64,000 bases of DNA from NCBI RefSeq assembly GCF_058153355.1, contig NZ_CM177019.1. The stretch is one strand, 5' to 3'. Position numbers and translations under genes: made by a program. Shown in pieces: positions 11,711 through 12,097 of this stretch (its first letter is position 1; every line of letters starts with the position of its first letter). Below the pieces are notes generated by a model. The model ran no database searches and was not told the origin of the DNA. It saw only the letters and a program-made list of their open reading frames with translations.

Positions 11711-12097
11711 TTAACGATACTTCTGGTGATAGGCGTTGCGGGTCGTTTTCAGTTGCTCTGCGGCAGCCTGCGCTTCTTTTACTTTACCTTCATTAGCCAG
11801 CTTCAGCGCGTCGTCAATCTGACCGACCAGAATGTCGAAACCGTGGCGGAAGTCTTTCATCTCCGGGCTGTCTGGCGATTTGCCTTCGAGCTTCGGCGGC
11901 GTTGCTTTTTGCGCATCCAGCGCCGCTGCGCGCATTTTGGTTAACGCGTCTTTGACTTGCGCCGCGTTATCGGCTTTTTCGACCACTTTTAAATTGTCGT
12001 TGAGGGTTTCCATATTGTCTTCAAGATCAGCGGCAAACGACGCCGAACTGAATACCAACGAGGAGACTGCAAGAATAGCTAACAGGCTTTTACGCAT
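11711..12097 (-). CDS. cybC: Soluble cytochrome b562, full-length precursor with signal peptide
   Basis: 128-aa product [37 protein letters not shown]...NAYHQKYR matches cytochrome b562. Confidence 0.9.

Follow-up and report, generated by a model that had tools for sequence, protein, structure and literature searches.

The gene cybC at positions 11711–12097 of the analysed DNA is intact, encodes the complete precursor of cytochrome b562, and is directly followed by a relBE-type toxin-antitoxin pair which lies between it and nrdG. An ordinary functional cybC allele, an ancestral gene order that includes relBE, and two independent events on the side of Escherichia coli K-12 very probably make up the whole explanation of what distinguishes this locus from that of K-12. 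Hereafter, the window is the whole stretch of 64,000 nucleotides taken from contig NZ_CM177019.1 (assembly GCF_058153355.1), and all the positions refer to it unless otherwise stated. All the parts of the locus are already known, being annotated in public genomes.

Identity and Integrity of cybC

The features that concern cybC itself are the following:

11711–12097, minus strand: cybC, cytochrome b562 precursor, 128 aa, intact (open reading frame, Pfam PF07361, NCBIfam NF011632, and identity to WP_001232246.1)
12032–12097, minus strand: codons 1–22 of cybC, Sec-type signal peptide (the mature PDB chains align to residues 23–128)
12104–12109, minus strand: putative Shine-Dalgarno AGGAAG, 6 nt 5' of the cybC ATG (from reading of the sequence)

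In the list of open reading frames, cybC is an uninterrupted ATG-to-stop frame of 128 aa on the minus strand. Its product matched PF07361 (Cytochrom_B562) along the entire profile (positions 1–102 of 102; E=5.8e-34, 117.2 bits with a cutoff of 30) and the NCBIfam equivalog NF011632, named 'cytochrome b562', at positions 1–127 of 127 (193.7 bits with a cutoff of 130). Moreover, the translation is the same as WP_001232246.1, as annotated in four other, unrelated E. coli genomes; this is a real gene and no chance ORF. The mature 106-residue chains of 256B, 1QPU and 1APC align with residues 23–128 of CybC, and residues 1–22 are thus the signal peptide; this segment is hydrophobic and ends with SFA, where the cleavage point is predicted, and the mature protein starts with ADLEDNM. 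Open reading frame, profiles and PDB alignment all confirm the full 128-aa precursor with its signal peptide described in the first-pass annotation. In the mature sequence (ADLEDNM...NAYHQKYR), a Met is found at position 7 and a His at position 102, which in 256B are the axial ligands of the haem. We suggest that cybC is here an ordinary functional allele, whose Sec-exported precursor would be cut after residue 22 to give cytochrome b562, a 106-residue four-helix-bundle haem-b protein; the allele is predicted to be expressed, exported and loaded with haem.

The closest well-known system is the cybC of E. coli B (256B, and the source of BRIL), which has the same position between pmbA and nrdG, the same length, the same signal peptide and the same mature start as the gene in the window. 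In the B strain REL606 the gene is intact (387 bp), and no toxin-antitoxin pair is present at the locus; the window protein differs from that of REL606 by two substitutions, V39 for I and G72 for D (precursor numbering). Unlike the B locus, the window has no ERIC-like repeat upstream of cybC and has relBE downstream of it.

The cybC Lesion in K-12

The statement that cybC is annotated as defective or truncated in K-12, put forward in the first-pass annotation as in need of verification, proved correct. In fact, cybC (b4236) is flagged as a pseudogene in the RefSeq record of K-12 MG1655 (NC_000913.3), and the lesion was located by alignment:

12079–12104, minus strand: 26 bp absent from K-12 and present intact in the window (alignments with MG1655 and REL606)

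When the window, MG1655 and five further E. coli loci were aligned, the deletion was seen to take the ATG and codons 1–7, together with the spacer before them and the final base of the Shine-Dalgarno. The MG1655 pseudogene is orthologous to the cybC of the window, with ~95% identity of the coding sequences along the 377 bp that they have in common, but the K-12 locus differs in the loss of the 26 bp, in the ERIC-like repeat upstream, and in a 44-bp spacer which takes the place of relBE downstream; K-12 cybC is, thus, neither full length nor in an identical context. When MG1655 was compared with REL606, the length differences in 1200 aligned columns came down to a 1-bp indel and the gap of 26 bp, and the remaining 121 codons of K-12 cybC were still open. 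The deletion is at the 5', pmbA-proximal end of the gene, and the 3' end and the stop codon are intact in K-12. Since the K-12 frame meets an in-frame TAA just upstream of the junction, and the next in-frame ATG corresponds to Met29 of the precursor, no signal peptide can be made, and, because the deletion took the translation start, K-12 cannot make exported cytochrome b562.

The distribution of the lesion was determined with a probe of 50 nt spanning the junction, with 25 nt per side, one side alone being too short for megablast seeding. Of 5426 complete E. coli genomes, 355 gave a match, always at 100% identity, and the 60 carriers that were evenly sampled among these were, without exception, K-12 laboratory derivatives (MG1655, BW25113, DH5alpha, C600, J53, MC4100, DH1 and others), from which we conclude that the 26-bp deletion is private to the K-12 lineage.

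It could be argued that the K-12 'pseudogene' is an artefact of annotation or sequencing and that the gene is effectively functional, considering that its 121 remaining codons are uninterrupted and that the in-frame Met at precursor residue 29 is still present. We assign to this reading a practically negligible probability: the 355 K-12-derived assemblies that share the identical junction were sequenced independently and, with a third of the signal peptide deleted along with the ATG and a TAA in frame just upstream, any product of K-12 cybC would be devoid of the export signal. In addition, a multi-omics comparison based on arrays lists cybC among the genes with higher expression in REL606 than in MG1655 under all the conditions tested, the level in MG1655 being distinctly lower (PMC3446290). 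A literature search for cybC as a pseudogene or truncated gene, whose scope apparently leaves out the primary cybC cloning papers, returned incidental mentions only.

The relBE Module Downstream of cybC

The segment 10998–11710, directly 3' of cybC and enclosed by the stop codons of cybC and nrdG, contains the toxin-antitoxin pair, with the following features:

11278–11520, minus strand: relB-type antitoxin, 80 aa (Pfam RelB, E=6.1e-16, and NCBIfam NF008412)
10998–11288, minus strand: relE-type toxin, 96 aa, intact (Pfam ParE_toxin, E=3.9e-14, TIGR02385, and alignment with RelE)
11545–11577, unstranded: inverted repeat TGTAATGCAT...ATGCATTACA over a TATAAT box 5' of relB (repeats I6 and D10, and sequence)

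The gene relB comes first and relE second, with an overlap of 11 nt, and the stop of relE abuts that of nrdG. The antitoxin scored 58.6 bits against PF04221 (cutoff 22.4) and 130 bits against the RelB/DinJ equivalog NF008412 (cutoff 96); the toxin scored 53.4 bits against PF05016 (cutoff 23), and its match to TIGR02385, RelE_StbE, is marginal (28.6 bits with a cutoff of 27.9). The alignment of the toxin with E. coli RelE (4V7K, 4FXE) is free of gaps, with 60 of 94 residues identical, and K52, K54, R61, R81 and Y87, which we take to be the active-site residues with the roles assigned to them in the published RelE-ribosome structures, are all conserved between the window RelE and that of 4V7K. 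The pair looks like a conventional type II toxin-antitoxin module with predicted activity, in which RelE would be a ribosome-dependent mRNA endonuclease and RelB a labile antitoxin and autorepressor; a toxic RelE neutralised by RelB would be expected, and the inverted repeat at 11545–11577 is likely to be the autoregulated relBE promoter with its operator. The arrangement recalls that of K-12 RelBE, a ribosome-dependent mRNA interferase (4V7K, 4FXE), in having the antitoxin upstream, overlapping genes and a palindromic putative operator; by contrast, the window pair, whose activity is a prediction, is a paralogue that resides elsewhere on the chromosome, adjoining nrdG.

The first-pass annotation regarded this module as an extra one, inserted next to the intact cybC at a suspected hotspot of rearrangement. 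According to such an explanation, relBE would have been inserted next to cybC, and the same insertion-prone junction would have damaged cybC in K-12. This would agree with the fact that K-12 has no relBE and a defective cybC, while both are intact in the window, and with the variability of the nrdG–cybC spacer between strains and genera. However, the K-12 deletion lies at a distance of 370 bp, towards the opposite end of a gene whose 3' end and stop are undamaged; ~4,600 genomes have neither relBE nor the K-12 junction, and cybC is full-length in all four relBE-deficient genomes that were examined, namely REL606, EcPNK006 and F1140, where it is intact without relBE, and O145, which has the antitoxin only. 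Furthermore, the position of relBE is constant across genera, as described below, and we consider this explanation extremely unlikely. A link between the K-12 lesion and the relBE junction was ruled out by the alignments, which place the deletion at the far end of cybC.

As the lesion affects the 5' (pmbA) side of cybC and the relBE difference its 3' (nrdG) side, the two are independent of each other. The state of K-12 would then have arisen from two independent derived events, the 26-bp deletion in cybC and an older replacement in E. coli, by which the 713-bp spacer bearing relBE would have given way to the 44-bp spacer with its hairpin.

Position and Ancestry of relBE

The local gene order is nrdD (8260–10398, plus strand), nrdG, relE, relB, cybC and pmbA, followed by yjgA, mpl and fbp. 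The elements that frame the module are:

10533–10997, plus strand: nrdG, core gene convergent with relE (Pfam Fer4_12, E=4.9e-56, and annotation of homologous loci)
11678–11703, minus strand: terminator-like hairpin TTGGGCGGTGAAACGTTACCGCCCAA directly 3' of cybC (repeat and hairpin analysis)
12150–13502, minus strand: pmbA (tldE), core gene that precedes cybC in the same orientation (open reading frame and annotation of homologous loci)

One genome per species was scanned with CybC, and the flanks were then compared by tblastn. The antitoxin gene, with or without relE, was found between cybC and nrdG in E. coli E69, Escherichia sp. E1V33, E. coli SCPM-O-B-8794, E. whittamii and E. albertii, and in six representatives of Escherichia species relBE lies against the nrdG 3' end. 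In Citrobacter sp. NCU1, S. enterica subsp. arizonae and K. pneumoniae, too, it is the immediate neighbour of nrdG, and its spacing from the nrdG stop is 0–9 bp in four genera. In the annotation of K. pneumoniae, nrdD and nrdG are followed by RelE, RelB, a PRD-domain regulator and a sugar-acid-type operon; in Salmonella, Citrobacter and Klebsiella, several kb with further genes, among them the PRD-domain regulator in Klebsiella, separate cybC from relB. The nucleotide identities to the window were:

E. coli 631: relB 99.5%, cybC 97%, nrdG 98%
E. whittamii: relB 95.8%, cybC 94%, nrdG 95%
E. albertii: relB 95.6%, cybC 90%, nrdG 93%
Citrobacter NCU1: relB 79.8%, cybC 77%, nrdG 85.5%
S. arizonae: relB 79.4%, cybC 75%, nrdG 82%
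K. pneumoniae: relB 76.9%, nrdG 84% (compared for these two genes)

Across these taxa the divergence of relB parallels that of the flanking cybC and nrdG. Between genera, RelE diverges faster than RelB (63–71% versus 80–91% amino-acid identity), and the toxin may have been replaced between genera; for the relBE adjoining nrdG in S. enterica arizonae, the amino-acid identity to the window is 89% for RelB and 71% for RelE. Judging from the locus numbering, STM4449–STM4450 of Salmonella Typhimurium LT2 presumably adjoins nrdG as well, and would hence be the ortholog. This locus is listed as a relBE-type module in two sources, one of which is a retracted paper; a literature search pairing nrdG with relE gave nothing relevant.

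Remnants of the cassette were also observed: Escherichia sp. MOD1-EC7003 has lost it and keeps ~55 bp of its left end, and Citrobacter R56 keeps ~65 bp of the relE 3' end. On the cybC side, the spacer and hairpin of the window type are common to all the other Escherichia species, while E. coli of the K-12 type have a different hairpin, and their 44-bp spacer showed no resemblance to the relBE allele or to what follows cybC in other genera. In the simplest reading of these sequences, the order nrdG, relE, relB, cybC, pmbA, with nrdG convergent to the other genes, is the ancestral one in Escherichia, relBE at nrdG predates the genus, and the derived state is the 44-bp spacer seen in K-12, in B and in most E. 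coli. Because of its constant place by nrdG, and of a divergence that tracks the flanking genes, relBE appears to be ancestral and lost in K-12, rather than extra or inserted as the first-pass annotation had it; this is deduced from single representatives per species, and a similar picture would result from recurrent homologous replacement by way of the conserved flanks.

On the other hand, toxin-antitoxin modules are often mobile, and relBE could be a cassette acquired by horizontal transfer, more than once, at a favoured site past nrdG, instead of being inherited vertically. Its patchy occurrence in E. coli (454 of 5426 genomes), the greater divergence of RelE than of RelB between genera, and the existence of related pairs, at 68–72% identity, on small plasmids would fit with this possibility, which we nevertheless judge to be very unlikely. 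The 713-bp segment carries no integrase, IS element or flanking repeats; the same place, 0–9 bp from the nrdG stop, is occupied in four genera; the changes in relB go in parallel with those of the neighbouring core genes; lineages now without relBE retain remnants of it; and no close copy is found on plasmids.

An origin of relBE from a plasmid or phage was explored by blastn of 72,556 plasmid records, and was rejected, as it gave only relatives at 68–72% identity. None of these records is a true plasmid with relBE above ~72% identity, the single match at 97% being a 4.9-Mb chromosome filed as a plasmid.

Decay of relBE and Structural Variation at the Locus

With relBE taken as an ancestral resident of this site, the pair is seen to be decaying in many lineages. 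It is gone from most E. coli, including K-12 and B. The cassette, whole or in part, was detected in 454 of 5426 E. coli genomes, always on the chromosome; it was covered for at least 80% in 391 of them (~7% of all genomes being full-length), and a remnant occurs in ~1%. The intact state is represented by the window and by strain 631, whereas relE is frameshifted in 2020CK-00188, E69 and SCPM-O-B-7615. In other genomes, among them O145 RM9872 and E1V33, relE has been precisely removed by the loss of 283 bp between the direct repeats TCATCCAGCCG and TCATCCAGTCG, leaving an orphan antitoxin that ends with RLDE. Further states are those with the antitoxin deleted, those with a degraded module (E. 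whittamii, E. albertii), and those in which it is wholly replaced. The repeat concerned is:

11002–11012, unstranded: direct repeat TCATCCAGCCG, with its partner at 11285–11295 (family D1; junctions in the comparison loci L005, L008 and L009)

These direct repeats, which each encode ...LDE where relE and relB end, mark a recurrent and precise toxin-only deletion, carried by ~60 E. coli genomes and by another Escherichia species.

The haplotypes were counted with purpose-built probes and in an evenly spaced sample of 40 rows of the E. coli matches. In this sample we found full relBE in 3 rows, the antitoxin only in 1, the ERIC-like repeat only in 22, neither relBE nor the repeat in 10, the K-12 type in 3, and a cybC disrupted by an IS in 1. 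In the E. coli genome NZ_OY754853.1 (L066), cybC is split by ISEc22, an IS66-family element, independently of the K-12 deletion. The first-pass annotation suggested that the junction is a hotspot of rearrangement. Several independent structural variants do occur on both flanks of cybC, and the term can be kept as a description, in this weak sense only.

The Spacer between pmbA and cybC

The other flank of cybC is a spacer of 52 bp (12098–12149), with one feature to be noted:

12127–12144, unstranded: GC-rich hairpin just past the pmbA stop (hairpin analysis)

A palindromic ERIC-like repeat of ~129 bp is absent from this spacer in the window; it is present upstream of cybC in K-12, in B and in the representatives of all the other Escherichia species (in the comparison locus L001, at positions 2835–2975 of that locus). 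At the pmbA–cybC site it was found in ~3,885 records, corresponding to ~72% of E. coli. The repeat is a long imperfect palindrome (−63 kcal/mol) with a median of 3 places per genome at the sensitivity of blastn, and it gave a partial, collinear match to both ERIC PCR primers, the sequences used for the comparison. The element of K-12 and B may be related to the ERIC/IRU repeats, which are imperfect palindromes of ~127 bp, intergenic and multicopy. The repeat-free allele contains spacer bases that cannot be derived from the repeat allele by simple deletion. No literature pairing ERIC and cybC was found. A scan of 10900–12500 for consensus sigma-70 sites revealed no promoter, and it is possible that cybC is transcribed by read-through from pmbA.

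A Candidate Terminator in the relE 3' End

At the point where nrdG and relE converge, a further element was identified:

11007–11050, plus strand: hairpin CAGCCGTTT/AAACGGCTG followed by a pyrimidine tract, within the 3' end of relE and past the nrdG stop (repeat I7)

The stems are made of the codons for ...AVY... and ...KRL..., and the tract corresponds to the antisense strand of the codons for GKRE, among them a rare AGA Arg codon. An equivalent hairpin with a pyrimidine tract, made of different stems, is present in Klebsiella, S. arizonae and Citrobacter. Tentatively, the 3' end of relE could double as the terminator of the convergent nrdDG operon, which is induced anaerobically, though we regard this candidate role as rather doubtful. 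If it were true, it would help to account for the persistence of relBE at precisely this place in several genera and for the retention of just the relE 3' remnant in Citrobacter R56, and it would predict transcriptional interference between nrdDG and relBE.

Other Differences from K-12 in the Window

Several differences from K-12 were noticed outside the cybC locus. In the ppa–ytfP–tamB region (22890–23610), the window lacks chpS–chpB, a toxin-antitoxin pair located between ytfP and ppa in K-12, and REL606 is likewise without it. As K-12, in turn, is devoid of the relBE described here, K-12 and the source strain differ reciprocally in two toxin-antitoxin modules within 12 kb. The segment 40187–43067, 2.9 kb between ytfE and cycA, has no counterpart in K-12, and its two long minus-strand ORFs (497 and 438 aa) gave no Pfam or NCBIfam match. 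An island of 8 kb absent from K-12 (46630–54606) encodes a short-chain dehydrogenase, a xylose-isomerase-like TIM barrel, an enoyl-CoA hydratase, a CoA-transferase, an FAD-binding oxidoreductase and an MFS transporter, and, given these enzymes and the transporter, it is probably a catabolic operon. Two more segments are specific to the window when compared with K-12, each with one ORF: 16851–17458, between fbp and yjfF, for a DUF2569 protein, and 57750–58330, for a DUF1440 protein. Over the shared genes the identity between the window and K-12 is only 94–97%. The best full-length match to the window among the 5,426 complete E. coli genomes reaches ~98.5% over 25 kb, and the source lineage is thus poorly represented among complete genomes.

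Significance

The finding on cybC in itself has little significance beyond bookkeeping. For work on periplasmic cytochromes, or on cybC as the source of BRIL, the choice of the strain is concerned, since K-12 hosts are without the native cybC start, which B and wild isolates have. K-12 is here an atypical reference: seen from K-12, the normal state, with an intact cybC and an ancestral relBE, looks anomalous. Finally, the relBE locus offers a natural decay series at one chromosomal site, from the intact pair, through the frameshifted toxin, the deleted toxin and the deleted antitoxin, to the deletion of the cassette.
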